Below, piece after piece: positions 1 through 60,962 of a DNA stretch of 64,000 nt. The translations under genes were made by a program, and so were the position numbers. The notes under the pieces were generated by a model. The model did not search any database. It was not told the origin of the DNA and saw only the letters and a program-made list of their open reading frames with translations. Within the stretch, counting starts at the first letter, position 1. Each line of letters begins with the position of its first letter. The stretch spans positions 1,936,468 through 2,000,467 of the forward strand of contig JAHCIY010000002.1 in the NCBI GenBank assembly GCA_026128965.1, given 5' to 3'. The DNA is from Labilithrix sp. GTDB taxonomy: Bacteria > Myxococcota_A > Polyangia > Polyangiales > Polyangiaceae.

Positions 1-1497
1 GGCCGTGATCTGGAGGAGCAAGTTGCGTTCGGCGCCGGGGATGATCGTGTCGAAGACCTGCCCCGTCACGAGCGGGATGAGGGTGGAGAACGATCCGAGG
101 CCGAGGCCCACCACGAGCACGAACGCGACGTCGCGCCAGGCGCGCTTGCCGGAGAAGCGCAGCACGTCGAGCGGTCGGAGCGGGCGGTCCGGCATCGGCG
201 GATAGAACTGGTACGCCTGCGGGTGCACGCGCTCGGCGAGCTCCGCGGTCACCCGACGCGGGCCGCCGGCGCGCGCGTCGAAGAGCTCGTAGCCTCCCTT
301 CGCCGGCAGGAGCGCGATCGGGTTCAGCCGCTCGTCGTTCACCTCGTCGCCGTCGTCGAGCATGAAGCCGAGGAGCGGGCCCACGTCGTCCTCGTGCCAG
401 TCGCCCTCGAGCAGCACCCTGCGCGTGCGCACGCCGGTCATCTGCGCGATCGCGGTCTGGACGGCGCCGAGGCCCGCGCGCGCGGCCGGCCAGCGCGCGT
501 GGATCTCCGCCACGCCGAGGTAGGCCGCGATCTTCTCGGCGGCGTGCTCGAACGGGCGCGCGCTCCCCGACGTCGCGCCGAGGCGCTCGCCGCGCCCCAC
601 CGCCGCGAGCTGGCGGAGCGCGTCGGCGACGAGCTCGCCCTCGGCCTCGCGCGACGCGCCGTCGAGCGCCGCGCGCGCGGCCTCGGCGCCGGCGCGGCTC
701 TTCGCGAGCACCGACACGACGAACGCGTAGAACGCGTCGGCGAAGCTCGTGCTCCGATCGCGCGCGAGGAGCTCCACGCTCGTCGACGTCCGCGCCCCCG
801 TCATCCACGCGCCGCGCGACGAGAGCGGCGACGACAGCGCGCGCGACGACGCGGTCGCGCCCTCGCCGCCGACCACCCACGCGCTCTCGGTCAGCGGCCA
901 CTGCCGCGGCGCGTCTTCGTGCTCGGTCACGCGGACGGCGCCGAAGCGCTCCGGCGTGCTCGCGAGCGTGATCCAGACGAGGCCGCGCGCGGCGCGGAGC
1001 GGGTTCGCCTGCGGTCCGAGGACGAGGCCCGGCTCGACGGCGTCGCACCGCGTCGGCACCGGCGCGGCCGGGAGCATCGAGACGAGGTGCGTGATCCAGG
1101 CGTCGAAGGCGCCCTCGGCGGAGGCGCGCCGCGCCGGATCGGCCAGCGCCTCGACGAAGAGGCGCGACGGGATCCTGAGCACGGAGCCGCCGGGGGGACC
1201 GGTGAGGAGGAGCGCGGCGAGCTCGGTCGCGTTCGCGTCCGGCGCTCGCGCGAAGAGGAGCTGTCCCGGCGCGACGGAGCTCACGTACGCGCGGCGCCCG
1301 ACCGCGCGGCCGTCGCGCCATCCGACGCAGAAGAGCTGGTGGCCCGGCATCGTCGTGACGTAGACGTAGGCGGGATCGTCGAGGAGGAGCGGCTCGTCGC
1401 CCTCGACGCGGAGCTCGTCGCACGCCTCGCCGAAGAGCGCGCGCAGCGACGCGGCGACCTCCGGCTCCTCCTGGCTCGCGCGCGCGGTGTCGATCAT
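1..1497 (-). CDS. NHLM-type bacteriocin system ABC transporter, ATP-binding/permease protein. It has a large N-terminal domain of about 480 aa before the first transmembrane helix. Partial: the C-terminus lies beyond the window start.
   Basis: Its ATG at 1495-1497 overlaps the TGA of the upstream C39-ABC gene (ATGA). I translated the minus frame by hand: it begins MIDTARASQEEPEVAASLRALFGEACDELRVEGDEPLLLDDPAYVYVTTMPGHQLFCVG. Near the window start it reads ...WRDVAFVLVVGLGLGSFSTLIPLVTGQVFDTIIPGAERNLLLQITA, which looks like TM1 of an ABC exporter. There is no stop in this frame inside the window. This fits the second ABC gene of NHLM clusters (TIGR03797-like). Confidence 0.6.
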   Translation of the reverse strand, partial: MIDTARASQEEPEVAASLRALFGEACDELRVEGDEPLLLDDPAYVYVTTMPGHQLFCVGWRDGRAVGRRAYVSSVAPGQLLFARAPDANATELAALLLTGPPGGSVLRIPSRLFVEALADPARRASAEGAFDAWITHLVSMLPAAPVPTRCDAVEPGLVLGPQANPLRAARGLVWITLASTPERFGAVRVTEHEDAPRQWPLTESAWVVGGEGATASSRALSSPLSSRGAWMTGARTSTSVELLARDRSTSFADAFYAFVVSVLAKSRAGAEAARAALDGASREAEGELVADALRQLAAVGRGERLGATSGSARPFEHAAEKIAAYLGVAEIHARWPAARAGLGAVQTAIAQMTGVRTRRVLLEGDWHEDDVGPLLGFMLDDGDEVNDERLNPIALLPAKGGYELFDARAGGPRRVTAELAERVHPQAYQFYPPMPDRPLRPLDVLRFSGKRAWRDVAFVLVVGLGLGSFSTLIPLVTGQVFDTIIPGAERNLLLQITA

Positions 1498-3662
1498 GAG
1501 GTCGTGATCAGCTCGTGGTAGAGGCCGCCCTCGGCCATGAGCGCCTCGTGGGAGCCGCGCTGCACGGCGACGCCGCGATCGAGGACGATGATCTCGTCGG
1601 CGTCGCGGATCGTGGAGAGGCGGTGCGCGATGATGAGGCAGCTGCACCCGCGCCGGCGGAGGTTCGCGTCGACGCGCTGCTCGGTCTCGGGATCGAGCGC
1701 GCTCGTCGCCTCGTCGAGGACGACGATCGCCGGCTGGCGCACGAGCGCGCGCGCGATCTCGAGGCGCTGGCGCTGCCCGCCGCTGAAGTTCACCCCGCCC
1801 TCGAGGATCTTCCCGTCGTAGCCGCCGGGGAGCTTCGCGATGACGTCGTGGATGCACGCGTCCTTCGCCGCCTGCACGACGTCGGCCTCCGGGATCGTGT
1901 CGTCCCAGAGGGTGAGGTTCTCGCGGACGGTACCCTCGAACAACGTCACCTCTTGATCGACGATCGCGACCGACGTCGTGAGCGCGCTCCGCGGGAGCGC
2001 CTCGCGCGGCGTGCCGTCGAAGACGATCTCGCCGCTCCACGGCCGGTAGAGACCGCAGACGAGGCGCGCGACCGTCGACTTGCCGCTCCCGCTCCCGCCG
2101 ACGAGCGCGACGCGCTGTCCCGGCGAGAGGTGCAGCGTCAGCTCGCTCACGAGCGGCGGCGACAGCGGGAGGTAGCCGAAGGTGACGTCCTTCAGATCGA
2201 GCTCGCCGGTGAGGCGGCGCGTGTCCGCCTCCGTCGCGGCCGCGGCGAAGGTCGTGTCCTCCTCGTGCTCGAGGACGTCGTCGAGGCGCTCGAGATCGCC
2301 GCGGAGCTGCTGGAGCGACGCGCCGACGTGGGAGAGGCTCTCGATCGGCCCGAGGAAGCCGGCCATCAGCGTCTGGAAGGCGACGAGCATGCCGAGGCTC
2401 ATGTGGCCGTCCATCACCCGGAGCGCGCCGATCGAGAGGACGAGGAGCGTGCTCGCCTGCCCGACGAGGCCGGTCGTCGTGAGGAGGAGCTGATCGCGCC
2501 GCGCGAGGGCCTGCTGCGACGCGAGCAGCTTCGCGTGGTATCCCGCCCACTGCCCGAAGAACTCGGTCTCGGAGCCGGTCCCCTTGATCGTCTCGATCAT
2601 CTGGAGGCCGCCGGACGCGACGCCGTGGAGCTTGCCGTGGTGCTGCACGACCTGCCGGGAGAGGTCGGTGCGCGCGCGCTCGGCGCCGCGGAGCAGGAGG
2701 ATGTACGCCGCGGCGGTGGCGAAGCCGATGAGCGTCAGCCACGGATCGATGTACAGCATGAAGAGCGCGTAGAACGCGACGAGGACCAGATCGAGCGCGA
2801 TCCCGGAGACGCGCCCCGACAGCGTGTGCGCGACGGCGTCGTTCGCGCGGACGCGATCGGCGAGGTCACCTGCGGAGCGCGCGAGGTAGAAGTCGATCGG
2901 CAAGCGGAGCGCGTGCCAGAGGAACCCGGTCGCCATCTTCACGCCGAGGCGCGCGACGAGCTTGATGAGCGCGGTGCGCTGGAGGTACGTGAGGACGAGG
3001 CGGAGGAGCGCCGCCGCGCTCATCGCGAGGAGGATCGACGAGAGGAGGTCGACCTGCCCGCCGACGAGGACCTCGTCGACGAACACCATGCCGAAGACGG
3101 GGACGACGAGCCCGGGCACGAGGAGGCAGAGACCGGCGAGGGCGATGAAGGCGATCGCTTCGCGCGATCCCGCGAGCCGTCGCGCGAGCATCGCGAACAT
3201 CGAGGGCCGCCGCCCCTTCGGCCGGTACGCCTCCGTCGGCTTGAAGGAGAGGACGACGCCGGTGAAGGCCTGGTTGAACTCCTCGAGCGGGACGCTCGTC
3301 GGCCCCGCCGCGGGATCGTTCAGGTAGGCGCGGCGATCGTCGAAGCCCTCGACGACGAGGAAGTGGTTGAAGTTCCAGTGGACGATGACGGGGAGCGTGA
3401 GGTCGGTGACCTGGTGCGGCTCCTTTCGGTAGCCCTTCGCCTCGAGGTCGTATTTGCGCGCGGCCTTGATGACGTTGCTCGCCTTCGAGCCGTCGCGCGA
3501 GACGCCGCACTCCTCGCGCAGCTTCGAGAGCGGCACGAACGTGCCGTAGTGCTCGAGCACGATCGCGAGGCTCGCCGCGCCGCACTCGGTCGCCTCCATC
3601 TGGAGGCGCGTCGGCGTGCGGATGCGCTTCACCTTCTTCGGCTTCGGCGCCTCGGCGGTCAT
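1494..3662 (-). CDS. Bacteriocin/RiPP export ABC transporter with an N-terminal C39 peptidase domain (NHLM_micro_ABC1-like; peptidase, permease and ATPase in one protein)
   Basis: 722 aa, starting MTAEAPKPKKVKRIRTPTRLQMEATECGAASLAIVLEHYG, which contains the C39 catalytic Cys. It has six TM helices. Walker A is GGSGSGKST, the ABC signature is LSGGQRQRLEIARAL, and Walker B is IVVLDEATSALD. The true start is internal to track ORF 1494..5090, and the residues upstream of it are Arg/Ser junk. Confidence 0.9.
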   Translation of the reverse strand: MTAEAPKPKKVKRIRTPTRLQMEATECGAASLAIVLEHYGTFVPLSKLREECGVSRDGSKASNVIKAARKYDLEAKGYRKEPHQVTDLTLPVIVHWNFNHFLVVEGFDDRRAYLNDPAAGPTSVPLEEFNQAFTGVVLSFKPTEAYRPKGRRPSMFAMLARRLAGSREAIAFIALAGLCLLVPGLVVPVFGMVFVDEVLVGGQVDLLSSILLAMSAAALLRLVLTYLQRTALIKLVARLGVKMATGFLWHALRLPIDFYLARSAGDLADRVRANDAVAHTLSGRVSGIALDLVLVAFYALFMLYIDPWLTLIGFATAAAYILLLRGAERARTDLSRQVVQHHGKLHGVASGGLQMIETIKGTGSETEFFGQWAGYHAKLLASQQALARRDQLLLTTTGLVGQASTLLVLSIGALRVMDGHMSLGMLVAFQTLMAGFLGPIESLSHVGASLQQLRGDLERLDDVLEHEEDTTFAAAATEADTRRLTGELDLKDVTFGYLPLSPPLVSELTLHLSPGQRVALVGGSGSGKSTVARLVCGLYRPWSGEIVFDGTPREALPRSALTTSVAIVDQEVTLFEGTVRENLTLWDDTIPEADVVQAAKDACIHDVIAKLPGGYDGKILEGGVNFSGGQRQRLEIARALVRQPAIVVLDEATSALDPETEQRVDANLRRRGCSCLIIAHRLSTIRDADEIIVLDRGVAVQRGSHEALMAEGGLYHELITTS

Positions 3663-4642
3663 CAGCCCTCGTCGTCGAGCGCCGGGAACACGAGCGCGAT
3701 CGGCCGGCTGGCGCGCGTCACGACCGCCGCCTCGCAGCGCGTGCCGCTCGTCAGCGTCACCTCCGGTCCTTCCCCGTTCGACCAGCGGTACCCGCTCGGC
3801 GTCGCGCCGCGCTCGAGCTCGGCGCGCACCGCGATCGGCGCGCCGCCGGCGGCCTGGATGAACGCGTCGACGAGCTGCTCGTTGCGGAGCGCGCCCATCA
3901 TGCCCGACCGCGTCGACGGGTACTGCTCGACGGACCTCACCTTCCCGAGGAGGACGCCCGCGCGCTCCTTCTTCACGACCGACGGCGCGATCTCGACCTG
4001 CATCCCCGGACGGAGCGACTTGCCGACGTGGGAGTCGAAGTAGAGGAGCGCCTCGAGCTCCTGCCCCTCCGGCGTCGCGCGCTCGATCGTCGCGAGCGGC
4101 GTGCCCGGCGTCACGCGCTCGCCGGGGACGGCCCGCACCTCGAAGACGCGTCCGGCGGCGGCGGCGTAGAGCTTCGCGCCGGAGGTGCGCGTCTTCCTCA
4201 GGCGCTCTAGCTCCTCGCGCAGGCGATCGCGCCGCGCGCCGAGCGACGCCGTCACGGTCCCGGCGTCGACGTCGTGATCGAGCTCGTCGAGGCGGCGCGC
4301 GAGCCCTTCGATCTGTCGATCGAGCGCCGGCTGGGCGACCTGCGCGACGAGCTGTCCCTGCTTCACCTGATCGCCGGCGGAGACCTCGACGCTCACGAGC
4401 TCGCCCTCCGTCTCGGCGAGGACCTCCGAGAGCCCCGCGCCGCCGAGGAGGATCCCGCTCGCGTGGACCTTCGAGCGCACGCGCCCGAGCGAGCCCCACG
4501 CGATCGCGGTGGCGATGACGAGGGCGCAGCCGGCGAGCGCGAGCCACGCCTTCGCGTTGGTCACGCGCATCAGCGTGTGGAGCTGCTCGGGGGAGCTGAG
4601 GCGATCGAGGGCGGCCTTGCGAAAGAGCTTCGAGTCCGCCAT
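3662..4642 (-). CDS. HlyD-family membrane fusion / secretion protein (NHLM bacteriocin system secretion protein-like)
   Basis: 326 aa, starting MADSKLFRKAALDRLSSPEQL, which is the typical N-terminus of bacteriocin-type HlyD proteins. It has one TM helix and a coiled-coil region (LREELERLRK). Its stop overlaps the start of the ABC gene. Confidence 0.85.
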   Translation of the reverse strand: MADSKLFRKAALDRLSSPEQLHTLMRVTNAKAWLALAGCALVIATAIAWGSLGRVRSKVHASGILLGGAGLSEVLAETEGELVSVEVSAGDQVKQGQLVAQVAQPALDRQIEGLARRLDELDHDVDAGTVTASLGARRDRLREELERLRKTRTSGAKLYAAAAGRVFEVRAVPGERVTPGTPLATIERATPEGQELEALLYFDSHVGKSLRPGMQVEIAPSVVKKERAGVLLGKVRSVEQYPSTRSGMMGALRNEQLVDAFIQAAGGAPIAVRAELERGATPSGYRWSNGEGPEVTLTSGTRCEAAVVTRASRPIALVFPALDDEG

Positions 4643-4644
4643 CG

Positions 4645-5154
4645 CTAGCTCCCCCGCGCCTCTTGCACCTGGCGCGCGAGGGCGTTGAAGCGCGCGCCGG
4701 CGCGGTCGACGTTGTCGAGCACGCTGTCGTCGAGCTCGTCGTCGTAGGAGGCGTCGGTCGCGTTGCGGAGCCGGTCGGAGAGGAACGTCGCGACCGACTT
4801 GTAGAAGCGGAGCCCGAAGCCCGGGTTCTGCTCGAGCGCGCCGGCGAGGACACGCCGCGAGATGGCGTACACCACCGCGTCTCCGGCGGCGCTGACGGTG
4901 GCGCTCGGCGGCCGCGCGTCGACGAACGACATCTCGCCCGCGACCTCGCCCACGCCGAGGCGCGCGATCTCGCGCTTCGTCTTCCCCTGCTGCACGACGA
5001 GCTCGCCCTCGAGCACGATGTAGAGGCGCTCGACGGGCACGCCCTCGGTGATGAGCGCAGCGCCCTTCGCGACGCGCTCCTTGCGCCCATGCTTCGCGAG
5101 CCAGTCGACGTCGGCGTCGCTGAGCTGTCCGAAGATGAAGAGGACCTTCCGCAT
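4645..5154 (-). CDS. Cyclic-nucleotide-binding domain protein (bacteriocin-type transport-associated protein, cyc_nuc_ocin-like)
   Basis: 169 aa, starting MRKVLFIFGQLSDADVDWL. It contains the cNMP-binding signature GEVAGEMSFVDARPPSATVSAAGDAVV. Its stop lies 2 nt before the HlyD start. It is the first gene of the cassette. Confidence 0.8.
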   Translation of the reverse strand: MRKVLFIFGQLSDADVDWLAKHGRKERVAKGAALITEGVPVERLYIVLEGELVVQQGKTKREIARLGVGEVAGEMSFVDARPPSATVSAAGDAVVYAISRRVLAGALEQNPGFGLRFYKSVATFLSDRLRNATDASYDDELDDSVLDNVDRAGARFNALARQVQEARGS

Positions 5155-5337
5155 CGCGCGCCTGCCGCCCCTGTAAGGAGGGGCCTACAGTACAGGCTGC
5201 GCGTCGCGGCGTGTTACAAGAACGCGGCTCGCCGCGTCCTTTTTCGGACTGTATCGCGTGCGCGTCGGCGGGCGGGATATCCTGCGTCCGTGCCCGTTCA
5301 GGATCCGGTCAAGCTCTGGTGCCTTGGGGTCGGCGCG

Positions 5338-6858
5338 ATGCTCACGGAGGTGAACGGTCTCCGTCATGACGAGATCGGCGGATGGGCGCCGGGGCCGCGG
5401 GCGCGTGAGTGGTGCGCGAACGTCCTCTCCGACTCGTGGGGCGTCGCGGGGGAGAAGCAGTTCCACGAGATCGTCGACTGGCTCACGCGCACCGGCCACA
5501 GCGCGGAGGCGCGCTCGCAGATCGCGGGGCTCGGGCCGAACCCGCTCGCCGACTACCCGAAGCAGACCATCGTCCGCGCGCACCGGCAGCAGATCGAGCG
5601 GCAAGGCCTCCTCGCCTGGGACTGCGGGCGCCTCGCGTCGATCGTCGGGTGGGGCTTCCACGTCGGGTACCTCGACGAGAACGAGACGTGGCGCATCCTC
5701 CACGGCAACGCGCGGCGCGTGCAGCAGACCTACTCCGCCTGGCGCGAGCTCGGCGACGCCTACGTGATGGGCCGGATGTGGTGGGCGCAGGGCGCGACGA
5801 ACGAGAAGACGCGCAACGCGCACATCAACCTGATCGGGAGCCCGAATTCGCCGTGGAACCGGATGCCGTGGCAGCACCCGCTCGGCGACGCGCCCGCGCC
5901 CGCCGCGCCCGGAGCGTCGAGCAAGGCGACGGTCCGCTTCAAGCGCAGCGTGTGCCCGAGCTGCGGCGGCCACAAAACGCGGCCCTCGCAAACGGCTTAT
6001 GTGTATTGCGACTTCTGCGGGACCCTCGCCGACTACGACTTCCAGAAAGCGTGCGAGGTGCCGGCGAAGCAGCCGGGGCCGGCGTATCAGGAATTGAACG
6101 CGCGGCTCGGGCCGATGATGCAGCAGGCCAAGGCGACCGGCGACGTCAACGGATATCGCAACTTGCAGCGCCAGCTCTTTGCGATGTACATCGAGCAGCT
6201 CCCGAACGCGAACCCGCCGCGCGTGAGCGATCCCGAATACCGTAATCGCTACATCGAATACATGGCCGAGGGCGGCACCGTGACCGCGTTCGACCCGCAG
6301 GCGCTCGCGCTCGAGGCGGAGGTCACGCGCTCGATCGGTGCGCTCCAGTGGGCATTCCCGAAGCCCGGCGTCATGAAAGTAGCGGCCCACAGCTTCGGGC
6401 CGATGGCGAATGCCGTGTTCGCGCAGCAGGACTACATCGCGCGGCTCTACGAGTCGCGCGGCGTCTACGCGATGCACCCCGACCGCGCGCCGGGCGAGCT
6501 CCAGAAGCGGGTAGGGATATCCCTCTTCGTCCAGGGCTGGCTGCCGATGCTCGACGAGGCGTCGACGCAGGCCTTCCTCGAGCGCGCGGGGCTCAAGACC
6601 GAATACGTCGAGGTCGAGCCGGTGAAGGGCGATAAAGCAGATTGTGGGGGGTGCGGCAATCCGCTCGAGGTCCTCCCCGGCGCCAAGCGCTGCATCTGCG
6701 AGAAGTGCGGGCGCGGGCTCGAGGTCGCGGGGGAGCGCATCTCCTGCCGCGGCTGTGGCGCGCCGCTCGCGCCGACGGAGGGCTCGAGCACCGTGACGTG
6801 CCCGCACTGCAAGAACAGCTTCCAGCGCGTCCAGATGATCCAGCCGGGGTTCGGATGA
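5338..6858 (+). CDS. Hypothetical protein with a DUF1266-like N-terminal domain and two C-terminal Cys4 zinc-ribbon pairs
   Basis: The protein reads MLTEVNGLRHDEIGGW...LLAWDCGRLASIVGWGFHVGYLDENETWRILHGNARR, which is the DUF1266 (YbeR/YbeU-like) pattern LLAWDL..R...WGY..GYL. Zinc-ribbon Cys pairs are CPSCGG...CDFCG and CGGCGN...CICEKCG...CRGCG...CPHCK. An alternative in-frame GTG start at 5290 is possible. Confidence 0.6.
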   Translation: MLTEVNGLRHDEIGGWAPGPRAREWCANVLSDSWGVAGEKQFHEIVDWLTRTGHSAEARSQIAGLGPNPLADYPKQTIVRAHRQQIERQGLLAWDCGRLASIVGWGFHVGYLDENETWRILHGNARRVQQTYSAWRELGDAYVMGRMWWAQGATNEKTRNAHINLIGSPNSPWNRMPWQHPLGDAPAPAAPGASSKATVRFKRSVCPSCGGHKTRPSQTAYVYCDFCGTLADYDFQKACEVPAKQPGPAYQELNARLGPMMQQAKATGDVNGYRNLQRQLFAMYIEQLPNANPPRVSDPEYRNRYIEYMAEGGTVTAFDPQALALEAEVTRSIGALQWAFPKPGVMKVAAHSFGPMANAVFAQQDYIARLYESRGVYAMHPDRAPGELQKRVGISLFVQGWLPMLDEASTQAFLERAGLKTEYVEVEPVKGDKADCGGCGNPLEVLPGAKRCICEKCGRGLEVAGERISCRGCGAPLAPTEGSSTVTCPHCKNSFQRVQMIQPGFG

Positions 6859-7502
6859 AGAAGAGCACGAGACTTCGCGCCGCCGAGCCGGCCCCGGACG
6901 TCGACGACGTCGTCCGCCGGCTCGAGCGCCTCACGAAGAAGAAGAACGAGTCGTACCGTTTCGGCACCCGCCTCGCCGAAGAGCAGCTCCGCGCGTTCGA
7001 GGACGCGCACGGCGTCACGCTCCCGGAGGAGTACCGCGCCTTCCTCCAGGCCGCGGGCGAAGGCGCGTCGGGCCCCGACTACGGGCTCGTCACCCTCGCG
7101 CACGCGATCAAGGAGCGCGGCGAGACGATCTACGGCCTCGCCGATCCGTTCCCGATCCCCGCCTCGACCGCCGACCTCCTCGACTTCGCGGTCGGCGGCA
7201 TCCTCCCCGTCGCCTACGGCGGCTGCTCCTACTTCACCGGCATCGTCACGACCGGCCCCGCGCGCGGGACGATGTGGTTCAGCGTCGAGGCGCGCCCGGG
7301 CTGGGTGCCGTGCTGGAAGGGCGCGCTCCTCGGCGCGAACGGCAAGCCGTACGCCGCGCCCGCCGACGCCGATCCGTACCGCGCGACGTACGACGCCGCG
7401 CTCGATCCCGTGAACGAGAAGCTGCGCCTCGGCTTCGCGGGCTGGTACGCGGGGTGGCTCGAAGGCGAGGAGCGCAAGGTCCTCGCCGGGGGCCTGTCGT
7501 GA
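6855..7502 (+). CDS. SMI1/KNR4 (SUKH-1) family protein
   Basis: The protein reads MKKSTRLRAAEPAPDVDDVVRRLERLTKKKNESYRFGTRLAEEQLRAFEDAHGVTLPEEYRAFLQAAGEGASG. This is the SMI1_KNR4 hallmark (L..FE...G..LPEEY..FL). Its ATG overlaps the TGA of the upstream gene (ATGA). Confidence 0.75.
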   Translation: MKKSTRLRAAEPAPDVDDVVRRLERLTKKKNESYRFGTRLAEEQLRAFEDAHGVTLPEEYRAFLQAAGEGASGPDYGLVTLAHAIKERGETIYGLADPFPIPASTADLLDFAVGGILPVAYGGCSYFTGIVTTGPARGTMWFSVEARPGWVPCWKGALLGANGKPYAAPADADPYRATYDAALDPVNEKLRLGFAGWYAGWLEGEERKVLAGGLS

Positions 7503-9586
7503 GCGAGCCGGTCGCGCTGCCGCGCCACCGCGGGAGCGTCACGATGCTCACGTTCACCGCCGACGGCCGCGTCCTCTCGACCAGCCTCGACCGCACCGCG
7601 CAGCTGATGCTCGCCGAGACGCGGAAGCCGCTCGCGGTCTTCGAAGGCCACCTCGCCGCCGTCGCCGACGCGGCCGCGCTCGCGAACGATCGCGTCGTCA
7701 CCGCCTCGTTCGACGGCGGGGTGCGCTTCTTCGACGCGACGACGGGGCGGCTCGCGCTTCTCGCGAAGGGCCACACGAGCCGCGTGATCGCGCTCGCGGT
7801 CGCGCCCGGCCGCGAGCGCGTCGCGAGCGTGAGCGACGACGGATCGGTCCGGATCTGGGACCGCGACGGCAACGCGGGACCGGTCCTGCGCGGCCACGAC
7901 GACGGCGCGATGCGCGCGTACTTCGAGGACGACAAGGCGATCGTCACCGTGTCGCGCGCCGGGATCGTCGCGACGTGGGACGCGACGACGGGCAAGCGCA
8001 TCGAGACGAACCGGATGGCGACGCCGGAGGAGAAGGCGGAGCCGGCGCCGCCGCGCGCGCTCGAGCTCGCGAAGGGGATCGTCGCGGAGGCGCGCGACGA
8101 CGGCACCGTCCGCATCACGGAGGCGAACAGCGGGCGCGCGGTCACGCTCGGCGGCCACGACGACGCCGTCACCGTGCTCGCGATCTCCCCCGACGGCGAT
8201 CTCCTCGCCGCGGGCTCGGCCGACGGCGCGATCCTCGTGTGGCGCTGGCGCGAGGCGTGGGGCCGCGGCGACGGCGCGGCCGCGGCGACGCCGGAGCTGC
8301 CGTGCGTGTGGCGCATCTCCGCCGAGACGAAGACGCCGGACACGCGCTTCGACGGCGGCGAGCTGTGGGTCGGGCGCTCCAACGTCCTCCACGCGTACGA
8401 CGCCGAGACGGGCGAGCGCGGGAGGACGATCGAGGCGCAAGGCGACCTCGTGCACTTCGGCAAGAAGCGGCTCGTCTTCGCGCGCTTCGTCGCCGAGATG
8501 AGCGTCGTCGATCGCAAGAGCGGCAAGGCGGTGCTGACCGCGCCGCTCGAGGGCGAGCACCTCCGCGCGCGCGCCGCGCAACCGCTTGCATGGTGCACAC
8601 GTCGCGCGGGGAAACCGAACGCGCTGCGCATCGTCGATCCCGACAAACCCGACCTCGCGGAGCTCGGCCCGATGAAGGGCTCGCTCGGCGTCTTCGCGTT
8701 CCGCGCCGACGGCAAGCGCGCGGCGGTCGCGGCGGCGGAGGAGCCGCGCGCGTGGCTCTGGAACGTCGAGAGCGGCAAGCTCGTCGCGGAGGCGACGTGG
8801 GAGGGCGCGCCCGCGACGCAGCTCGCGTTCACGCACGACGGCACGCGCGTCGTCGCCGGCACGCGCGACGGCCGCGTCCACGTGCTCGACGCGACGACGG
8901 GGGAGCGCGTCCGCGAGCTCGTCCCGCCGCCGGGCGATCCCCAGCGGCAGGGCCTCGCGCCGATCCACGTGTCGCCGGCGAGCGATCGCGTCGTCGCGTG
9001 GGGCGGCGACGCAAACCACGCGATCCTCTTCGACACCACGACCGGCGCGCCGCTCCTCCGCCTCTTCGGCGAGGAGAAGTCGGGCCTCGTCGCCTCCGGG
9101 GTCGCGTTCTCGCCCGACGGCACGCGCCTCGTCGCCGCGCACGTCGCGCGCCCGAAGCTCGTGTTCTACGACCCGATCGCGGCGGTCCGCGTCGTCTCGC
9201 ACGAGGTCCATCGCTCCGGCGGCGTCGGCGTGCAGCTCCGCTTCTTCGCCGGCGGCAAGCGCATGCTCTCGTGGGCGACGCAGGCGATCGACAAGAGCCT
9301 CCGCGCGTGGGATCCGCGCACGGGCGAGCGGCTCTGGGCGAACCTCGGCCTCGGCGGCGAGGGGATCGACGCGGTCGTGCTCTCACCGAACGAGCGCTTC
9401 CTCGCGGTCACGTCGCGCGGCTGGCCGCTCGTCCGCGTCGTCGACGCCGCGACCGGCAAGACGGTCGCGGACCTCGCCGGCCACCAGGGCTACGTGCCGC
9501 CGCCGAGCTTCGCCGCCGACGAGACGCTCCTCGCGACGAGCTCCTACGAAGGCGACGTGCAGGTCTGGGAGCTGCCTTCGGGTTAA
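7499..9586 (+). CDS. WD40/beta-propeller repeat protein
   Basis: About 695 aa with repeated ...GH.D.V....SPDG..LA.GS.DG.VR.WD... units. Its GTG start overlaps the SMI1 stop (GTGA). The alternative ATG (MLTFTADGR) is 45 nt downstream. Confidence 0.8.
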   Translation: MSEPVALPRHRGSVTMLTFTADGRVLSTSLDRTAQLMLAETRKPLAVFEGHLAAVADAAALANDRVVTASFDGGVRFFDATTGRLALLAKGHTSRVIALAVAPGRERVASVSDDGSVRIWDRDGNAGPVLRGHDDGAMRAYFEDDKAIVTVSRAGIVATWDATTGKRIETNRMATPEEKAEPAPPRALELAKGIVAEARDDGTVRITEANSGRAVTLGGHDDAVTVLAISPDGDLLAAGSADGAILVWRWREAWGRGDGAAAATPELPCVWRISAETKTPDTRFDGGELWVGRSNVLHAYDAETGERGRTIEAQGDLVHFGKKRLVFARFVAEMSVVDRKSGKAVLTAPLEGEHLRARAAQPLAWCTRRAGKPNALRIVDPDKPDLAELGPMKGSLGVFAFRADGKRAAVAAAEEPRAWLWNVESGKLVAEATWEGAPATQLAFTHDGTRVVAGTRDGRVHVLDATTGERVRELVPPPGDPQRQGLAPIHVSPASDRVVAWGGDANHAILFDTTTGAPLLRLFGEEKSGLVASGVAFSPDGTRLVAAHVARPKLVFYDPIAAVRVVSHEVHRSGGVGVQLRFFAGGKRMLSWATQAIDKSLRAWDPRTGERLWANLGLGGEGIDAVVLSPNERFLAVTSRGWPLVRVVDAATGKTVADLAGHQGYVPPPSFAADETLLATSSYEGDVQVWELPSG

Positions 9587-12820: not shown

Positions 12821-13705
12821 TCAGCGGCGCTTCGTGCGCTTCGGGCGGGCGGCGACGACGTCGGCGGCGCGTGAAGCGGTCGCGGCGGCGCGGAGCCAGC
12901 GCTCGAGCGTCTCGATGTTCGTCTCGGCGGCGAGCGACGCCTCGATCGCGCGCGCGTCGACGCCGCGGGCTTCGAGCACGGCGAGGATGCTCGTCCGCAG
13001 CGCGTCGATGCGGCCCTCCTCGCGGCCTTCCTCGCGGCCTTCTTCGCGGCCTTCCTCGCGTCCTTCTTCGCGCCCTTCCTCGCGTCCCTCTTCGCGGCCT
13101 TCCTCGCGTCCTTTCGCCTCGACCGCGTCGAGGCTCTCGAATCCCTTGCGCTGCAGCAGGTTCCGGAGCGTGGCTTCGTGCGCGGCGTCGCGGTCGTAGA
13201 GCACCGCGAGCGGGACGGGGTTCTCCAGGATGCCGGGCGCGGTCAGGACGCCGTCGCCCTTCACGACGCGCATCTTGCGGTCCTTCTCGTAGACCTCGAC
13301 GCGGCGCGCGCCCTCGAGGCGGACGACCCAGACGAGCTTCGTCCCCGCGTCGAGCAGCTCGTAGATCTTCGCCTGGAGCTCTTTCTCGTCTTGTCCGACG
13401 TCCGCGTATTCGACGGCCAAGGGCGGCGCCGTCCTTGCCCATCCCTTCTCGTCCGCGATCGGCCCCACCGCGACGTCCGGCGCGCGGAGCATGCCCGGCT
13501 CGGTCGACACGCCGAGGTCGACGCCCGCGGCCTCGACCTTCGGATCCGTCTCCAGCGCCGCGCCGCCCACGAGGTTCCGCGTGCTGCCGCGCTGGCCCGT
13601 CGGCAGGCACTGCACCGGATGCCCGTTCGACAGCTCGTACGGATCGCCGGAGCGGATCTGGCTCGCGACGAAGGGGCCGCGGCCCGAGAGCTTCTGCGTC
13701 CTCAT
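12821..13705 (-). CDS. Uma2-family (DUF820) putative restriction-endonuclease-like protein with an internal (GREE)8 repeat
   Basis: The protein reads MRTQKLSGRGPFVASQIRSGDPYELSNGHPVQCLPTGQ...PDVAVGPIADEKGW...VEYADVGQDEKELQAKIYELLDAGTKLVWVV, which are the Uma2 core motifs. It is followed by GREEGREEGREEGREEGREEGREEGREEGREEGR. The longer track ORF, which runs to 13777, has a junk N-terminus. Confidence 0.7.
   Translation of the reverse strand: MRTQKLSGRGPFVASQIRSGDPYELSNGHPVQCLPTGQRGSTRNLVGGAALETDPKVEAAGVDLGVSTEPGMLRAPDVAVGPIADEKGWARTAPPLAVEYADVGQDEKELQAKIYELLDAGTKLVWVVRLEGARRVEVYEKDRKMRVVKGDGVLTAPGILENPVPLAVLYDRDAAHEATLRNLLQRKGFESLDAVEAKGREEGREEGREEGREEGREEGREEGREEGREEGRIDALRTSILAVLEARGVDARAIEASLAAETNIETLERWLRAAATASRAADVVAARPKRTKRR
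13010..13115. repeat. Imperfect 12-bp tandem repeat (~8.5 copies, ggccttc[ct]tcgcg units). It encodes (GREE)n inside the Uma2 gene.
   Basis: I saw the repeated units cctcgcggccttcttcgcggccttcctcgcgtccttcttcgcgccc... directly in the sequence. Confidence 0.8.
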
Positions 13706-13836
13706 CCTACGAACCGTAGCAGACCCCGCGCCGGCCGGCCGGCGCCGCCTCCGGCCCGGCGGGCGACGGATCCCCATATTTCCCTGCGAATCGGCGGTAT
13801 CGACGTGCGCAACGCGTTCTGAGATACTCGCGAGCC

Positions 13837-14343
13837 ATGAGCACGTCCGTCGTCATCGAGACAGACCTTGGGGATATCGAAGTCGAGCTGGCGGATGACA
13901 AGGCGCCGAAGTCCGTCGCCAACTTCCTCCAGTACGTCGAGTCCGGCCACTACGAGGGCACCATCTTCCACCGCGTCATCCCGGGCTTCATGGCCCAGGG
14001 CGGCGGTTACGACGAGAAGCTCGAGAAGAAGCCGGTGAAGGATCCGGTGGAGAACGAGGCCGACAACGGTCTCAAGAACGAGCGCGGCACCGTCGCGATG
14101 GCGCGGACGAGCGCGCCGAACTCGGCGACGGCGCAGTTCTTCATCAACGTGAAGGACAACGGCTTCCTCGATCACACCGGCAAGAACGACACCGGCTGGG
14201 GCTACGCCGTCTTCGGCAAGGTCACCTCCGGCATGGACGTCGTCGACAAGATCGTCGGCGTGAAGACGGGCGCGAAGGGCCCCTTCACGAAGGACGCGCC
14301 GGAAGAGAACATCAAGATCAAGAGCGTGAAGAAGAAGGAGTGA
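13837..14343 (+). CDS. ppiB: Peptidyl-prolyl cis-trans isomerase, cyclophilin type
   Basis: 168 aa: ...HYEGTIFHRVIPGFMAQGGG...NERGTVAMARTSAPNSATAQFFINV... These are the canonical cyclophilin motifs. Confidence 0.9.
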   Translation: MSTSVVIETDLGDIEVELADDKAPKSVANFLQYVESGHYEGTIFHRVIPGFMAQGGGYDEKLEKKPVKDPVENEADNGLKNERGTVAMARTSAPNSATAQFFINVKDNGFLDHTGKNDTGWGYAVFGKVTSGMDVVDKIVGVKTGAKGPFTKDAPEENIKIKSVKKKE

Positions 14344-14900
14344 AGCCTCCGGCGCGGACGGCACGGCGGATCGCGCTCGTCCTCTCCGCCCTCGCGGTGC
14401 TCGTCTCCGTCGGTTGCGGGGTCGCGGCGCGGCACGCGTTCGCGATGCGCGGCGTGGTCGAGTCGGACCCCGAGGCGCTCGTGGGGCCTCTCCTCTGGTT
14501 CCTCGTCCTGCTCCTCGTCGCGCTCCTCCTCCGGATGGGCGCGGCGGTGTGCGAGCTCCTGTGGCTCGAGCGCACGTGGTCGAACCTGCCGCTCGAGCTG
14601 CGGAAGGTCGGGCCGATCGAGAAGGTCGAGCCGATCGTGCTCATCGGCGTGAGCCTCGTCCCCGGCGTCGCGTGGATCTGGAAGCTCGGCGTCATCGACG
14701 CGGTCGCGCGCGGCTTCGAGGCGATCCGCGCGCGCGTCCCGTTCACCGCGCCGGTCCCGCGCCGCCTCGGCGTGGCGGCCGTCGTCGTCGGCTGGGTGCC
14801 CGGTCTGAACGTGTATGTTGCACCCTTCTTGTGGGAGGTCTTCGCGACGCGGATCGATCGCTGCGTCAGTGAGATCGAAGCGCGACGCGCTCCGGCGTGA
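14340..14900 (+). CDS. Hypothetical membrane protein
   Basis: 186 aa. Its GTG start overlaps the ppiB stop (GTGA). It has several hydrophobic helices with Trp/Lys caps (LLWFLVLLLVALLL, IVLIGVSLVPGVAWIWKLGVI). Its composition is unlike the antisense junk. Confidence 0.5.
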   Translation: MKPPARTARRIALVLSALAVLVSVGCGVAARHAFAMRGVVESDPEALVGPLLWFLVLLLVALLLRMGAAVCELLWLERTWSNLPLELRKVGPIEKVEPIVLIGVSLVPGVAWIWKLGVIDAVARGFEAIRARVPFTAPVPRRLGVAAVVVGWVPGLNVYVAPFLWEVFATRIDRCVSEIEARRAPA

Positions 14901-15717
14901 ACGCGGGCTCGTCGAGCGCGAGCTCCTCGTCGTCGATCGCGACGCGGTAGCGCGCGGTGGGCTCCTCGGCGCCGACGCGCATCGCCGGCGCCGGCTTCTC
15001 CTGTCCGAAGCCCTTCCGCGCGAGGAGGATCGGGAGGAGGTGGAGCGAGAGCATCGGGAGCGCGATGAACGGGAGGAGGACGTTCCAGCCCATCGGCGCG
15101 AAGACCGCGGCGACGAGGAGGACGATGCCCGTCGCGGCGCCGAGGAAGATCCCCCACGACCGCATGCGGACGACGCCGATCGCGGACGCGAGGAGGGCGA
15201 GCGTGAGCCCGGCGAACGGGACGCTGAGCGCGAGATCGAGCTTGCTCGAGGCCCCCGCGAGCTCGAGCGCGATGCCGCCGGTGAGGAACGCGGTGGCCGC
15301 GGTCGCGGTGGAGCCGGCGAGGAGGAGCCGGCGATAGGCCTTGGGCGCGAAGCTCGCGAGCGCCTCCTTCGTGCGGAGCATCGGGGCCGAGAGCGCGAGG
15401 GCGGTCGCGGTCGTCGCCGTGAGCGCGGTCTCGGTGAAATCGGGGATGTGGTGGCGGATGAAGATCTGCGCGAGGAACACGATCGCCATCGGGAAGAGCG
15501 TGACCCACGCCGCGCCGCGGGACAGCACCTGCGCGACGAGCGATCGCCGCGTGATGCCGAGCGCGCTCACGCCGAGGACCCCGGCGAAGGCGAGCGGGAG
15601 CCACTCGACGTGCCAGTGCCGGAGCGACTCCCACGCGACGACGCCGGCCGCGCCGAGCATGGAGGCCGCAGCGACGGCCTTCCGCTTCACCGAGATCCCA
15701 TCGCCTGCGGTCCGCAC
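14866..15717 (-). CDS. Hypothetical polytopic membrane protein
   Basis: 283 aa and rich in Phe/Ile/Met/Trp/His (FPMAIVFLAQIFIRHHIPDF, FLGAATGIVLLVAAVFAPMGWNVLLPFIALPMLSLHLLPILLARKGF). Its 3' end overlaps the convergent membrane-protein gene by about 35 nt. Confidence 0.5.
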   Translation of the reverse strand: MRTAGDGISVKRKAVAAASMLGAAGVVAWESLRHWHVEWLPLAFAGVLGVSALGITRRSLVAQVLSRGAAWVTLFPMAIVFLAQIFIRHHIPDFTETALTATTATALALSAPMLRTKEALASFAPKAYRRLLLAGSTATAATAFLTGGIALELAGASSKLDLALSVPFAGLTLALLASAIGVVRMRSWGIFLGAATGIVLLVAAVFAPMGWNVLLPFIALPMLSLHLLPILLARKGFGQEKPAPAMRVGAEEPTARYRVAIDDEELALDEPAFTPERVALRSH

Positions 15718-15832
15718 CTCTGCTCCGACGAACGAGCGCGCGCGGATGTTCCAGATCCCGAGAAATGAAATCGATTTCGGTCACGCGCGCGCGTTGAACA
15801 CCATCGCGAAAAGGAGTACATGCGCCTACACG

Positions 15833-16495
15833 ATGGCGACCCAGCTCGTGCTCGACGCGCCCGTGAAGCCTCTCCTTCGCGGGGTTTCCCATCAGATCTC
15901 GTTCTTCTGCGCGATCGCGGCGACGGCCGCCCTCGTGCTGCGGGCGAAGCCGGGTCCGGCGACGGCGGTGGCCTTCGTCTTCGGGGCCACCCTCGTCAAC
16001 CTGTTCGGGACGAGCGCGCTCTACCACCGGGTCGACTGGTCGACGCGCGCGCGCAAGCGCATGCGGCGCCTCGATCACGCGGCCATCTTCGTCCTCATCG
16101 CGGGCGGGTACACGCCGATCTTCGGGCTCGTCCCGTCGCAGGCGGGCGGGCACGGCGCGCTCTACGCGATCTGGATCGGCGCGGGCCTCGGCGCCTTCAA
16201 GTCGCTGCTCTGGCCGGACGCGCCGAAGTGGGTGACGGCGCTCCTCTGCGTCGGGCTCGGCTGGATGGTGACGGGGCAGGTCATCGATCGCGCGTCCGCG
16301 GTGGGCACGCTCACGGTGGGGCTCCTCATCGCGAGCGGCGTGACCTACAGCCTCGGCGCCCTCGTCTACGCGCTGAAGCGCCCGAACCCGTTCCCGAAGG
16401 TCTTCGGGTACCACGAGGTCTTCCACGCGATCGTCATCGCCGCGAGCGTGTGCCTCTTCGCGCACGTCGTGATGGTGATGCGCGCGGTCGGCTGA
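15833..16495 (+). CDS. Hemolysin-III / PAQR family membrane protein
   Basis: 220 aa, starting MATQLVLDAPVKPLLRGVSHQISFF. It has the ...LDHAAIFVLIAGGYTP... and ...GYHEVFH... motifs and seven TM helices. Confidence 0.85.
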   Translation: MATQLVLDAPVKPLLRGVSHQISFFCAIAATAALVLRAKPGPATAVAFVFGATLVNLFGTSALYHRVDWSTRARKRMRRLDHAAIFVLIAGGYTPIFGLVPSQAGGHGALYAIWIGAGLGAFKSLLWPDAPKWVTALLCVGLGWMVTGQVIDRASAVGTLTVGLLIASGVTYSLGALVYALKRPNPFPKVFGYHEVFHAIVIAASVCLFAHVVMVMRAVG

Positions 16496-16499
16496 GCGC

Positions 16500-17261
16500 T
16501 CACAGCTTGTCGGCGTTGCAGTACCAGACCTGAACCTTCAGCGAGTCGACCTTCGCGACGACCGGCCCGCTGACGTCGGCCATGCGCCGCGCGGCGAGGC
16601 GCGGGCCGAACGTGGTGGGGCGGAGGTTCTTCGGGTAGAGGTACGTGCGCCACGTGTCGACGCGCGCGCCGTAGTGGTGCGTGCCGACGATCTGGCGCGG
16701 CCAGGGCTTCGAGAACCGCTTCGGCGTCGGCGGCGGCTCGGTGTCCATCACGAGGTTGATCGACACGTCCTCGACGCCGCTGTCGAGGGACTGGCGCTTG
16801 AGCTGCACGATGACGCCCCACGTCGCCTTGTCGTCGGGGAGATCGATCTTGTAGTCGCTCAGCTCGAGGTACGCGGACTCCTGTCCCTCCTCGAGCGTGA
16901 CGGTCGCGAACTCGCCGTCCTCCGAGATCGCGCCTTCGGGCGTCTCCCACGCGACGCCGCCGCCCGCGACGTCGCCGCGAGGCACGCTCTTCGCGACCCC
17001 CGCCTTCAAGAGCTCGGTCGAGTACAGCTTGCAGCCGTCGGGGGCGTGCGTCACGCCGGCGTCGGACGCGGTCGGATCCTCGTCGTCGTCGTCGTCGCCG
17101 GGTTGCTGGCCGCTCGAGCTGCCGCTGCTCGTCGACGTCGAGCTCGACGACGTCGTGCTCCCTCCTCCGGGCGTGGTGCCGGTGTCGTCGCTGCAGGCGA
17201 TGACGACGGCGGTGCCGAGGAACGCGAAGCACGAGAGAGCGGCGACGTACGCGAAGCGCAT
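16500..17261 (-). CDS. Secreted lipoprotein, hypothetical
   Basis: 253 aa. It starts MRFAYVAALSCFAFLGTAVVIACSDD (signal peptide plus lipobox), followed by a Ser/Thr/Gly/Asp-rich linker and a globular C-terminal domain. Confidence 0.65.
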   Translation of the reverse strand: MRFAYVAALSCFAFLGTAVVIACSDDTGTTPGGGSTTSSSSTSTSSGSSSGQQPGDDDDDEDPTASDAGVTHAPDGCKLYSTELLKAGVAKSVPRGDVAGGGVAWETPEGAISEDGEFATVTLEEGQESAYLELSDYKIDLPDDKATWGVIVQLKRQSLDSGVEDVSINLVMDTEPPPTPKRFSKPWPRQIVGTHHYGARVDTWRTYLYPKNLRPTTFGPRLAARRMADVSGPVVAKVDSLKVQVWYCNADKL

Positions 17262-17308
17262 CCCCCGATCCTATCGTGCGGATCGCGTCCGCGCACGCTC
17301 CGCGAGGC

Positions 17309-17542
17309 TCAGCCGCGCTGGAGCTCGCGGCGGAGGCGGAGGCCGTCACGCAGCGTCCAGGCGCCGCCGCCGAGCAGGATCAGCAGCGCGAGCGCGGCCA
17401 GGGGCGGCGCCGATCCATGTCCGACGAGCCCGAAGATCAGGGCGACGCCGCTCGCGATCGAGAGCGAGCCGGTGACGATGCGCTTGACGCACACCATGCG
17501 CGCGAACGCGCGGTCGACCTTGGCAGGCATGGGACGCAACAT
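17309..17542 (-). CDS. Small hypothetical membrane protein (77 aa, two TM helices)
   Basis: The protein reads MLRPMPAKVDRAFARMVCVKRIVTGSLSIASGVALIFGLVG...LALLILLGGGAWTLRDG. It lies between the TetR gene and the lipoprotein gene on the same strand. Confidence 0.4.
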   Translation of the reverse strand: MLRPMPAKVDRAFARMVCVKRIVTGSLSIASGVALIFGLVGHGSAPPLAALALLILLGGGAWTLRDGLRLRRELQRG

Positions 17543-17552
17543 GGCGGCCCTC

Positions 17553-18386
17553 TTAGCGCGAACGGAGCGTGCCGGCCAGGTACGCGTTCGCGGCCGCCGC
17601 GGCGCGCCGCGAGACGTCGCCGCGATCGAGCTCGACCCCGGACCACTCGGGCCCGACGACGATCGCGTGATGCGCGATCGACACGGCGAGGAGCACCGCG
17701 AACCCGACCTCCGGCGCGGCGGGCGGATCGTCGGTCTCGAGCAGCGATCGCGTGAGCCGCACGGTGAGGTGGGTCCCCACCCGCCGGAGCTCGTCGACGA
17801 GCGCGCGCTCTCCCGACGCGAAGATGGCGCGCACGAGCGCGGCGCGCGCGAGCAACAGGTCGACGACCGACCTGATCGCGAGATCGACCGGGCGCGCGCT
17901 CGCCTTGCCGTCCCAGACGCCGGGTCGCGTCGCGTCGTCGATGACGCTCGTCGCCTGCGCAGAGAGCCGCTCGCACAGCGCGCCGAGGAGCGCGCGCATG
18001 TCGGCGAAGTGCGCGTGGAACACGTCGACCGAGACGCCTGCCCACGACGCGACCTCGCGCGACGTCGTCAGGTTGAAGCCGCGGTCCGCGATCACGGCCT
18101 CGGCCGCGTCCATGATGAGCACGCGCGGCCCGGCCGCGCCGAGCGCGGGCACCTCCACCGTCGCGGCGAGGTCGTCGAGCACCCGCGCGGTCGTCGGCGG
18201 GGCAGGGGGAACCGGCGGCGCGTGCGCTACGCTCTTGCCGCGCGCGGCGGCGACGAGCTGCTCGACGGTGAGCGCGGGCGCCTCGATCGTCATCGACGAC
18301 GAGGGGCGGAGCTCCCGCGTCGACGGCGGCGGATCGGCGGCGCGTTTCTTCTCCTTCGTCGCCGGCTTTGCCTTGCGGCTTGCCAT
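17553..18386 (-). CDS. TetR/AcrR-family transcriptional regulator
   Basis: 277 aa, starting MASRKAKPATKEKKRAADPPP. The helix-turn-helix region is ...RVLIMDAAEAVIADRGFNLTTSREVASWAGVSVDVFHAHFADMRALL... The track ORF has an upstream junk extension. Confidence 0.8.
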   Translation of the reverse strand: MASRKAKPATKEKKRAADPPPSTRELRPSSSMTIEAPALTVEQLVAAARGKSVAHAPPVPPAPPTTARVLDDLAATVEVPALGAAGPRVLIMDAAEAVIADRGFNLTTSREVASWAGVSVDVFHAHFADMRALLGALCERLSAQATSVIDDATRPGVWDGKASARPVDLAIRSVVDLLLARAALVRAIFASGERALVDELRRVGTHLTVRLTRSLLETDDPPAAPEVGFAVLLAVSIAHHAIVVGPEWSGVELDRGDVSRRAAAAANAYLAGTLRSR

Positions 18387-18414
18387 CGCGCAGGATCGTA
18401 CTACCGAGAGAGCG

Positions 18415-19625: not shown

Positions 19626-19686
19626 CGCGCAGCGAGAGTAGAGCGCCGCGGCGATCGCGTCGACGTCCGGCAGGGCGTCGATTGTG

Positions 19687-44955: not shown

Positions 44956-45097
44956 GGAACCGTGCATCCTACCGCCGGGCTGGACTCCTGCCGCCGGAGG
45001 CCTAAAAAAGGCGCGCAACGCCGAGACCTCTTGCGGCATCTCTACGTTGGCCGGCTCCTTGACCGGCGATAACCCCTCGAATAGACGTCGGATCTCA

Positions 45098-60925: not shown

Positions 60926-60962
60926 CCCAGGCCGCGTCGCGCAGGAGGAGCGCCTCCTCGAT

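Follow-up and report, generated by a model that had tools for sequence, protein, structure and literature searches.

The three-gene transport cluster of the nitrile-hydratase-leader peptide (NHLP) system was defined by phylogenetic profiling against NHLP, and the precursors were found to lie sometimes far from the export genes and the exporter to have a wider distribution than NHLP (Haft, Basu & Mitchell 2010, PMC2887384). Another described relative is HetC of Nostoc PCC 7120, a peptidase-containing ATP-binding cassette (ABC) transporter (PCAT) with an N-terminal cyclic nucleoside monophosphate (cNMP) domain, which was proposed to export a signalling peptide and in which the cNMP domain is essential and in vitro binds ppGpp and not the canonical ligands (PMC10986499). 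Here we describe an operon at the left end of a 64,000-nucleotide stretch of Labilithrix sp. contig JAHCIY010000002.1 (positions 1,936,468 to 2,000,467 of the forward strand; G+C content 71%), called the window below. With a probability of about 0.88, this operon encodes a dedicated exporter of an NHLP/Nif11-leader peptide system, the cargo of which is encoded elsewhere.

Region 1-5154 of the window carries four co-directional minus-strand genes encoding a cNMP-domain protein (accessory protein), a HlyD-type adaptor and two ABC transporters, named here ABC1 and ABC2, in the order and with the content given by the initial annotation. The description of these genes as a complete four-gene cassette has to be corrected: the window ends within ABC2 and contains the first 499 of its 1004 residues, namely, its entire N-terminal cytoplasmic region and the start of the first transmembrane helix, and a fifth gene, encoding an S41/PDZ protease, follows. 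This continuation was read from the same locus on JAHBWE010000023.1 (GCA_019637155.1), designated L001, in which window position w corresponds to record position 61081+w and which adds 8.5 kb of sequence past the window start. Identical proteins are also present in a second assembly (MCW5813429-33), with the NCBI label 'MAG: ... [Labilithrix sp.]' (MAG, metagenome-assembled genome). The operon has five tightly packed genes, and region 1-5154 covers its upstream four-fifths (Table 1). The starts and stops, which had been described as overlapping, do so at two of the three junctions inside the window, HlyD/ABC1 (1 nt, TGATG) and ABC1/ABC2 (4 nt, ATGA), whereas the cNMP-domain and HlyD genes are separated by a 2-nt gap (TAG CG ATG); beyond the window, the ABC2 stop and the start of the S41 gene share 4 nt (GTGA). 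All five open reading frames (ORFs) are intact, and the G+C content at third codon positions (GC3) is 0.95-0.97 in all genes of the operon. A 1198-aa ORF at 1494-5090 was rejected as a spurious N-terminal extension of ABC1, an artefact of the high G+C content. The intergenic region upstream of the operon was described correctly and presumably holds the operon promoter; a promoter scan detected no sigma-70-like site in its 135 bp, which had no Rfam match either, and a small-ORF check found there, as had been stated, no ORF with a Gly-Gly-leader motif.

The assignment of the cassette to the NHLM/NHLP-type exporters holds for all three transport genes, which passed the curated cut-offs of the relevant profile hidden Markov models (HMMs). 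HlyD scored 272.9 bits with TIGR03794 (cut-off 156.2), its match being split into two stretches because of a deletion in its hairpin, ABC1 scored 1028.6 bits with TIGR03796 (cut-off 853.3; profile positions 1-709 of 710), and full-length ABC2 scored 826.7 bits with TIGR03797 (cut-off 709.4), the ABC2 fragment from the window alone reaching 113.8 bits (aa 318-498, profile positions 6-179). The E-values of the transport-gene matches range from 0 to 1e-81, far past chance. Independently, in the annotation by the NCBI pipeline PGAP, both ABC1 and ABC2 bear names of NHLP bacteriocin export subunits, ABC1 being called NHLP family bacteriocin export ABC transporter peptidase/permease/ATPase subunit. 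The system is already known and annotated, and its identification, while correct, is not novel. In the case of the accessory protein, the proposed family model TIGR03896 is the best match (E = 1e-37 vs. 6e-7 for CRP), but the score of 130.1 bits falls below the cut-off of 161.05, since this protein is half the length of the model and covers only profile positions 139-317 of 317. Its relatives score 125-131 bits.

Thirteen related loci (L002-L014), all from Polyangiaceae/Myxococcales MAGs, were fetched with the use of the ABC2 N-terminal region. The genes of HlyD, ABC1, and ABC2, which are adjacent on one strand in the window, recur in the same order in all 13 loci (L008 is cut), and the cNMP-domain gene is present in 11 of them, none having been found in L010 and L008 being cut. 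Precursors stand beside the cassette in three cases: L002 has Nif11 and NHLP precursors, with YcaO, TfuA and a split LanM-like enzyme encoded directly downstream (12896-19641), L005 has two Nif11 precursors with YcaO/TfuA (1996-6266), and L010 has an NHLP precursor. All these precursors (59-85 bits) pass TIGR03798 or TIGR03793 (cut-offs 32.3 and 50.9, respectively), which supports the link of the cassette to Gly-Gly-leader cargo. The presence of YcaO with TfuA at L002 and L005 suggests thioamide formation; the precursor cores of these two loci are Lys/Gly-rich. Further Gly-Gly-leader peptides, ending in ...EL..[DE]L..V.GG and giving weaker HMM matches, are encoded at L004, L010, L011, and L014. 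Those of L004 are encoded in tandem immediately upstream of the cNMP-domain gene (5639-5830 and 5905-6114, plus strand); their cores are rich in GDNDDA-type repeats and have a VITFGKE end, and the peptides match neither the NHLP nor the Nif11 model. In total, Gly-Gly cargo was found in the fetched flanks of six of the 13 relatives and not in those of the other seven, and therefore a cassette without adjoining cargo is common in this clade and not an anomaly.

Similarly to the cluster of Haft and coworkers, the present operon combines the same three transport families, above their cut-offs, in adjacent, co-directional and translationally coupled genes with a cNMP-domain accessory gene at the front, its relatives adjoin NHLP and Nif11 precursors, and in neither case does the precursor need to be near. 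Several features differ from that cluster: the accessory protein has a single domain, with 169 aa as compared with the 317 positions of the TIGR03896 model, and does not reach the cut-off, some 90 residues are missing from the coiled-coil hairpin of HlyD, the operon ends with a gene for an S41/PDZ protease, and no cargo was found.

Table 1. Features of the exporter operon and its surroundings. Positions are those of the window unless marked L001.
Feature	Position	Strand	Details
cNMP-domain accessory protein	4645-5154	-	169 aa; operon gene 1; MBX3233187.1
Phosphate-binding-cassette-like motif GEMSFVDARPPSATV	4894-4938	-	aa 73-87 of the accessory protein
HlyD periplasmic adaptor, short form	3662-4642	-	326 aa
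Residual short coiled-coil hairpin of HlyD	4187-4333	-	aa ~104-152; alignment and AlphaFold2
ABC1 (C39 + transmembrane + nucleotide-binding domains)	1494-3662	-	722 aa; start at 3662; MBX3233185.1
C39 double-glycine peptidase domain of ABC1	3231-3614	-	aa 17-144; PF03412, 120.8 bits
ABC2, residues 1-499 of 1004	1-1497	-	remainder past the window start; MBX3233184.1
Predicted CRP/cNMP-binding-like beta-barrel domain of ABC2	1075-1461	-	aa ~13-141
Predicted C39-like, cysteine-less domain of ABC2	202-561	-	aa ~313-432; presumed catalytically dead
Full ABC2 gene	L001 12166-15180		1004 aa
S41/PDZ protease, operon gene 5, outside the window	L001 15177-16892 = window -3229 to -1514	+ in L001, - in window	571 aa
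Divergent intergenic region upstream of the operon	5155-5289		135 bp; gene calls

ABC1 matches the Pfam models PF03412, PF00664, and PF00005 and has the predicted layout of a PCAT, namely, a C39 domain at the N-terminus, which carries the Gln/Cys/His/Asp motif, and then a transmembrane domain (TMD) and a nucleotide-binding domain (NBD). Its residues Q21, C27, H100, and D116 sit in the expected C39 motifs and are, by motif, the putative catalytic residues. The Walker A, signature, Walker B, and H-loop motifs are canonical in both ABC1 and ABC2. In contrast to PCAT1, ComA, and LahT, which are single-gene homodimeric transporters found mostly in Gram-positive bacteria, the present system has an adaptor and a cNMP-like accessory protein in addition to two half-transporters, which are paralogues, ABC2 being the obligate partner. 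Given the strict co-occurrence and the translational coupling of their genes, ABC1 and ABC2 probably form a heterodimer.

The large N-terminal domain that the initial annotation had noticed in the second ABC transporter is indeed there, with a length of about 440 residues. We collected 882 representative clusters of the ABC2 family (50% identity; exhaustive HMMER search), and most of its full-length members have about 960-1000 aa, hence the long N-terminus is normal for this family. The TIGR03797 model begins at residue 318 of ABC2. No Pfam match was obtained for the N-terminal region in any of 40 family members, a profile search against PDB sequences returned noise only, and hhalign of the region against the C39 domain of ABC1 detected nothing; the sole sequence-level signal is a weak profile match in the CRP-like part. 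In a model of this region built with AlphaFold2 (AF2) from 29 sequences (mean predicted local distance difference test score, pLDDT, 84.6), a beta-barrel with helices (aa ~13-141) is followed by a second beta-rich segment, a 50-residue helix, and an alpha/beta domain (aa ~313-432). As judged from this model, the N-terminus of ABC2 appears to consist of a CRP-like ligand-sensor fold, a beta-rich linker, a long helix, and a cysteine-less C39-like fold. Residues 305-445 of ABC2 include no cysteine. In the column of residue 320 (alignment A2), Cys is present in 23 of 29 family members and is replaced by Ala in the window protein, and in the presumed His column of the C39-like domain, at a position assigned by us tentatively, 26 of 29 members have Pro. 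This composition suggests that the region is not catalytic but serves in regulation or substrate docking.

HetC resembles ABC2 in its size of about 1000 aa and in the succession of a CRP/cNMP-like domain, a spacer, a C39 fold, TMD, and NBD. However, the HetC peptidase is active (C347/H420), whereas the C39-like domain of ABC2 has no cysteine and lacks the Cys/His pair; HetC has neither an adjacent adaptor gene nor a paralogous partner, unlike ABC2, and its cNMP domain is recognised by Pfam, in contrast to the ABC2 N-terminus. In the case of HlyB of the haemolysin type I secretion system, the C39-like domain (CLD, PDB 3zua) belongs to a solo homodimer operating with a C-terminal secretion signal, while the presumably dead domain of ABC2 follows a CRP-like module in the partner of a PCAT predicted to be active.

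The accessory protein (PF00027, 59.4 bits) is conserved: its orthologues in 11 related loci have about 160-190 aa and are 58-64% identical to it. We take the Pro in its motif GEMSFVDARPPSATV to stand, by comparison with the CAP/PKA motif, in place of the Arg that contacts the cyclic phosphate. This replacement casts doubt on cAMP or cGMP as the ligand, and as far as the motif can tell, the ligand is probably other than a classic cNMP. The motif core [R/K]PPSATV is kept in all 11 relatives. The acidic, conserved tail at the C-terminus of the accessory protein, DELDDSVLDNVDRAGARF, may serve for docking. The protein as a whole is soluble, conserved, and probably a regulator. The initial annotation had called the role of a cNMP-binding domain in a peptide exporter not well understood; the question is not wholly open, as HetC provides a studied precedent (PMC10986499), and the ppGpp binding of HetC fits the degenerate binding motifs of the present system.

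An alignment of HlyD proteins from 11 loci separates a long form of 413-422 aa, which spans the whole TIGR03794 model (335.8 bits), from a short form of 325-329 aa, to which the window protein belongs. The short form has a deletion of about 90 residues within the coiled-coil hairpin, which is reduced from about 145 residues in the long form to about 53. The single-sequence AF2 model of HlyD shows a helix-turn-helix at aa ~104-152 (pLDDT ~80-87) and is otherwise unreliable (pLDDT 39.8). Six loci (L003, L006, L007, L009, L011, and L014) combine the long HlyD with a TolC-like gene located between the cNMP-domain and HlyD genes, the products of which score 52-83 bits with TIGR01844, below the cut-off. 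The short HlyD without a TolC-like gene is found in the window, L002, L004, L005, L012, and probably L013. L010 is an exception, with a long HlyD and no TolC-like match in the fetched flank. Two cassette architectures are therefore present in this clade, one with a TolC-like gene and long HlyD and the other with no TolC-like gene and short HlyD. Neither a TolC-like ORF nor a match to Pfam families of the outer membrane efflux protein (OEP) type was found in the window and the 8.5-kb extension, and the locus has neither the TolC factor nor the long-hairpin adaptor of tripartite type I secretion; TolC is possibly encoded elsewhere in the genome. The alpha-hairpin of adaptors recruits the exit duct (PMC3807786), and for this reason the short HlyD may not be coupled to TolC in the usual manner. 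The Borrelia adaptor BesA, which has no hairpin, nevertheless functions with an outer-membrane duct (PMC3807786). Both proteins are devoid of the long alpha-hairpin that recruits the duct; however, BesA belongs to a resistance-nodulation-division (RND) pump and lacks the hairpin wholly, while the present HlyD is a TIGR03794 family protein retaining a stub of about 22 residues per arm.

The search for the cargo covered the window and the 8.5 kb to its left in six frames and was conducted by five methods. No precursor was found there with three regular expressions describing Gly-Gly leaders, whether or not a GC3 filter was applied, with phmmer and two myxobacterial precursors (a Nif11 and an NHLP one from a related locus) as queries, with HMMs of 65 NHLP sequences, three Nif11 leaders, and 11 cleavage-site motifs, or with NCBIfam models applied to all 31 small intergenic ORFs. 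The best E-value was about 4, and every weak match lay inside or antisense to a large gene. Pfam analysis of all called genes of the same region revealed no YcaO, LanM/LanC, radical-SAM or similar enzyme. The neighbouring genes encode DUF1266, SMI1_KNR4, WD40, major facilitator superfamily (MFS), cyclophilin, haemolysin III, and S15 peptidase proteins and a TonB-dependent receptor, as well as RecQ, IMPDH, AcrB, LigD, and other housekeeping or miscellaneous proteins. The earlier observation of no visible precursor or modification enzyme is thus borne out across the whole window, while of the two sites suggested for the cargo, the one past the window start is excluded for 8.5 kb. As no cargo was found within 8.5 kb on the left or 59 kb on the right, it would be encoded elsewhere.

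Several of these results weigh against the interpretation of the operon as a dedicated NHLP/Nif11-leader peptide exporter. The lack of a precursor or modification enzyme in the searched region leaves the cargo of this genome unproven, and a search of 5.8 billion proteins with two myxobacterial NHLP leaders, which sees only relatives sharing 5-residue words, gave 72 candidates, none of them from Labilithrix. The accessory protein scores under its family cut-off; the C39-like assignment in ABC2 comes from predicted structure, sequence profiles being blind to this fold; and with a truncated HlyD hairpin and no TolC-like gene nearby, the crossing of the outer membrane is not assured. There is next to no likelihood of the operon being a generic ABC system for type I secretion or multidrug transport that shares with bacteriocin exporters the C39 domain alone: ABC1 also scores on the HlyB, LssB, and MsbA models, but with at most 397 bits and far under their own cut-offs, whereas the cassette passed all three NHLP-specific models and related cassettes adjoin NHLP/Nif11 precursors. 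The HMM results refute this generic reading, which the initial annotation had named as its own possible refutation. An orphan remnant, deprived of its cargo and no longer a dedicated peptide exporter, would agree with about 70 kb free of cargo and tailoring genes and with the seven of 13 relatives that also have no detectable Gly-Gly peptides in their flanks, yet we find it quite unlikely, considering that the five ORFs are intact with the GC3 values given above, that canonical residues occur in the C39 domain and in the NBD motifs of both transporters, that the accessory protein retains both its identity to the relatives and the [R/K]PPSATV core, and that distant precursors are established for the NHLP system (PMC2887384). 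Better placed, although still tentative, is the possibility that the cargo is a short-leader Gly-Gly peptide encoded elsewhere, perhaps an unmodified bacteriocin or a signal, as proposed for HetC (PMC10986499). L004, the closest relative with flanks, encodes two tandem short-leader peptides of 60-70 aa (...GELTADDLDKVTGG), with no modification enzyme detected in flanks that were checked against the query set only, L010 and L011 encode short-leader Gly-Gly peptides as well, and the window has no Pfam-detectable tailoring enzyme of peptides that are synthesised on ribosomes and modified after translation (RiPPs). On the other hand, the short-HlyD relatives L002 and L005 have Nif11/NHLP precursors, YcaO/TfuA, and LanM beside the cassette.

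The remaining alternatives concern the destination of the cargo and the fifth gene. The product of this gene matches PF17816 (PDZ) and PF03572 (Peptidase_S41), has a lipoprotein-like N-terminus (...IVALAAAC), and finds its best NCBIfam model in chlamydial CPAF (NF033424; 221.4 bits, below the cut-off of 250). Delivery to the periplasm only, where the S41 protease would process or destroy the exported peptide, could explain why the hairpin deletion occurs in loci without a TolC-like gene while the six loci with a 413-422-aa HlyD carry one, given that exit-duct recruitment is done by the alpha-hairpin (PMC3807786), and the GTGA overlap of the S41 gene with the ABC2 stop and the lipoprotein-like start of its product would suit such a role. 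Still, we consider it improbable. BesA uses a duct despite its missing hairpin (PMC3807786), L010 lacks a TolC-like gene in the fetched flank despite its long HlyD, a TolC gene may lie at another place in the genome, and a term search for S41 proteases in a review of RiPP leader proteases from 2023 matched DOIs only (PMC10885120). Moreover, the S41 gene stands beside the cassette in none of the 13 relatives, and the three loci with homologues of 55-58% identity have unrelated neighbours and no exporter. The comparison with these 13 cassettes and three homologue loci does not favour the S41 protease as a part of the exporter system; we treat it, as a candidate assignment, as a lineage-specific operon passenger and give a dedicated periplasmic-processing role a low probability. 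A fuller version of the proposal, in which a short-HlyD, TolC-less exporter hands Gly-Gly-leader peptides to the periplasm for a second step of maturation or inactivation by a co-transcribed S41/PDZ lipoprotein protease and is gated by a non-cNMP ligand (e.g., ppGpp) through a pair of degenerate CRP-like modules, of which one is free and the other belongs to the presumably dead partner ABC2, is slightly more doubtful still.

If the operon is a dedicated exporter of NHLP/Nif11-leader peptides, as we prefer to read it, a Gly-Gly-leader precursor encoded elsewhere would be recognised in the cytoplasm, the C39 domain of ABC1 would cleave it after the Gly-Gly motif, and the ABC1/ABC2 pair would move the core peptide out. 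HlyD would connect the pump with the periplasm and perhaps also with an outer-membrane channel encoded at an unlinked site, and the free CRP-like protein together with the CRP-like module of ABC2 might tune the activity through a small ligand. The recognition, cleavage, and translocation steps would follow from family membership and intact motifs, while regulation by the CRP-like modules and the place to which the cargo goes are suggestions of ours.

Myxobacteria are rich producers, and the practical value of the cassette is that of a flag: the Labilithrix genome should encode Gly-Gly-leader peptides somewhere, possibly new RiPPs. The cassette itself matters little, its family having been defined in 2010 and the NCBI names already designating it as an NHLP exporter. 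Three observations are modest leads: the folds that make up the ABC2 N-terminus, the subtype with a short hairpin and no TolC, and the degeneracy of the cNMP motif. If true, it would be of interest to transporter specialists that the hitherto unannotated N-terminus of the widespread TIGR03797 partner comprises a CRP-like sensor and a dead C39 fold, that within one myxobacterial clade the loss of TolC from the cassette goes along with an adaptor hairpin shortened by about 90 residues, and that the degenerate motif suggests a ligand that is neither cAMP nor cGMP.

Several other genes in and around the window deserve a mention. Two small cysteine-rich predicted lipoproteins, one encoded in the window (19687-20172, minus strand) and one in L001 (16896-17384, minus strand), have no family match and no Gly-Gly leader. 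Divergently from the exporter, three plus-strand genes with 4-nt overlaps (5290-9586) encode a DUF1266 protein of 522 aa with several CxxC zinc-ribbon motifs, an SMI1_KNR4 protein of 215 aa, and a WD40 protein of 695 aa; SMI1/KNR4 domains are often those of immunity proteins of toxin systems. A Uma2-family putative endonuclease (12821-13705, minus strand) has eight tandem GREE repeats (GREEGREEGREEG...) in its C-terminal half. The minus-strand gene at 39328-45642 encodes a protein of about 2100 aa with many WD40 repeats and a C-terminal caspase domain (Peptidase_C14), the N-terminus of which is probably over-extended by the gene call. Near the right end of the window, a convergent pair for non-homologous end-joining (59873-62713) consists of genes encoding an ATP-dependent DNA ligase (59873-60925, plus strand) and a LigD primase-polymerase (61415-62713, minus strand).

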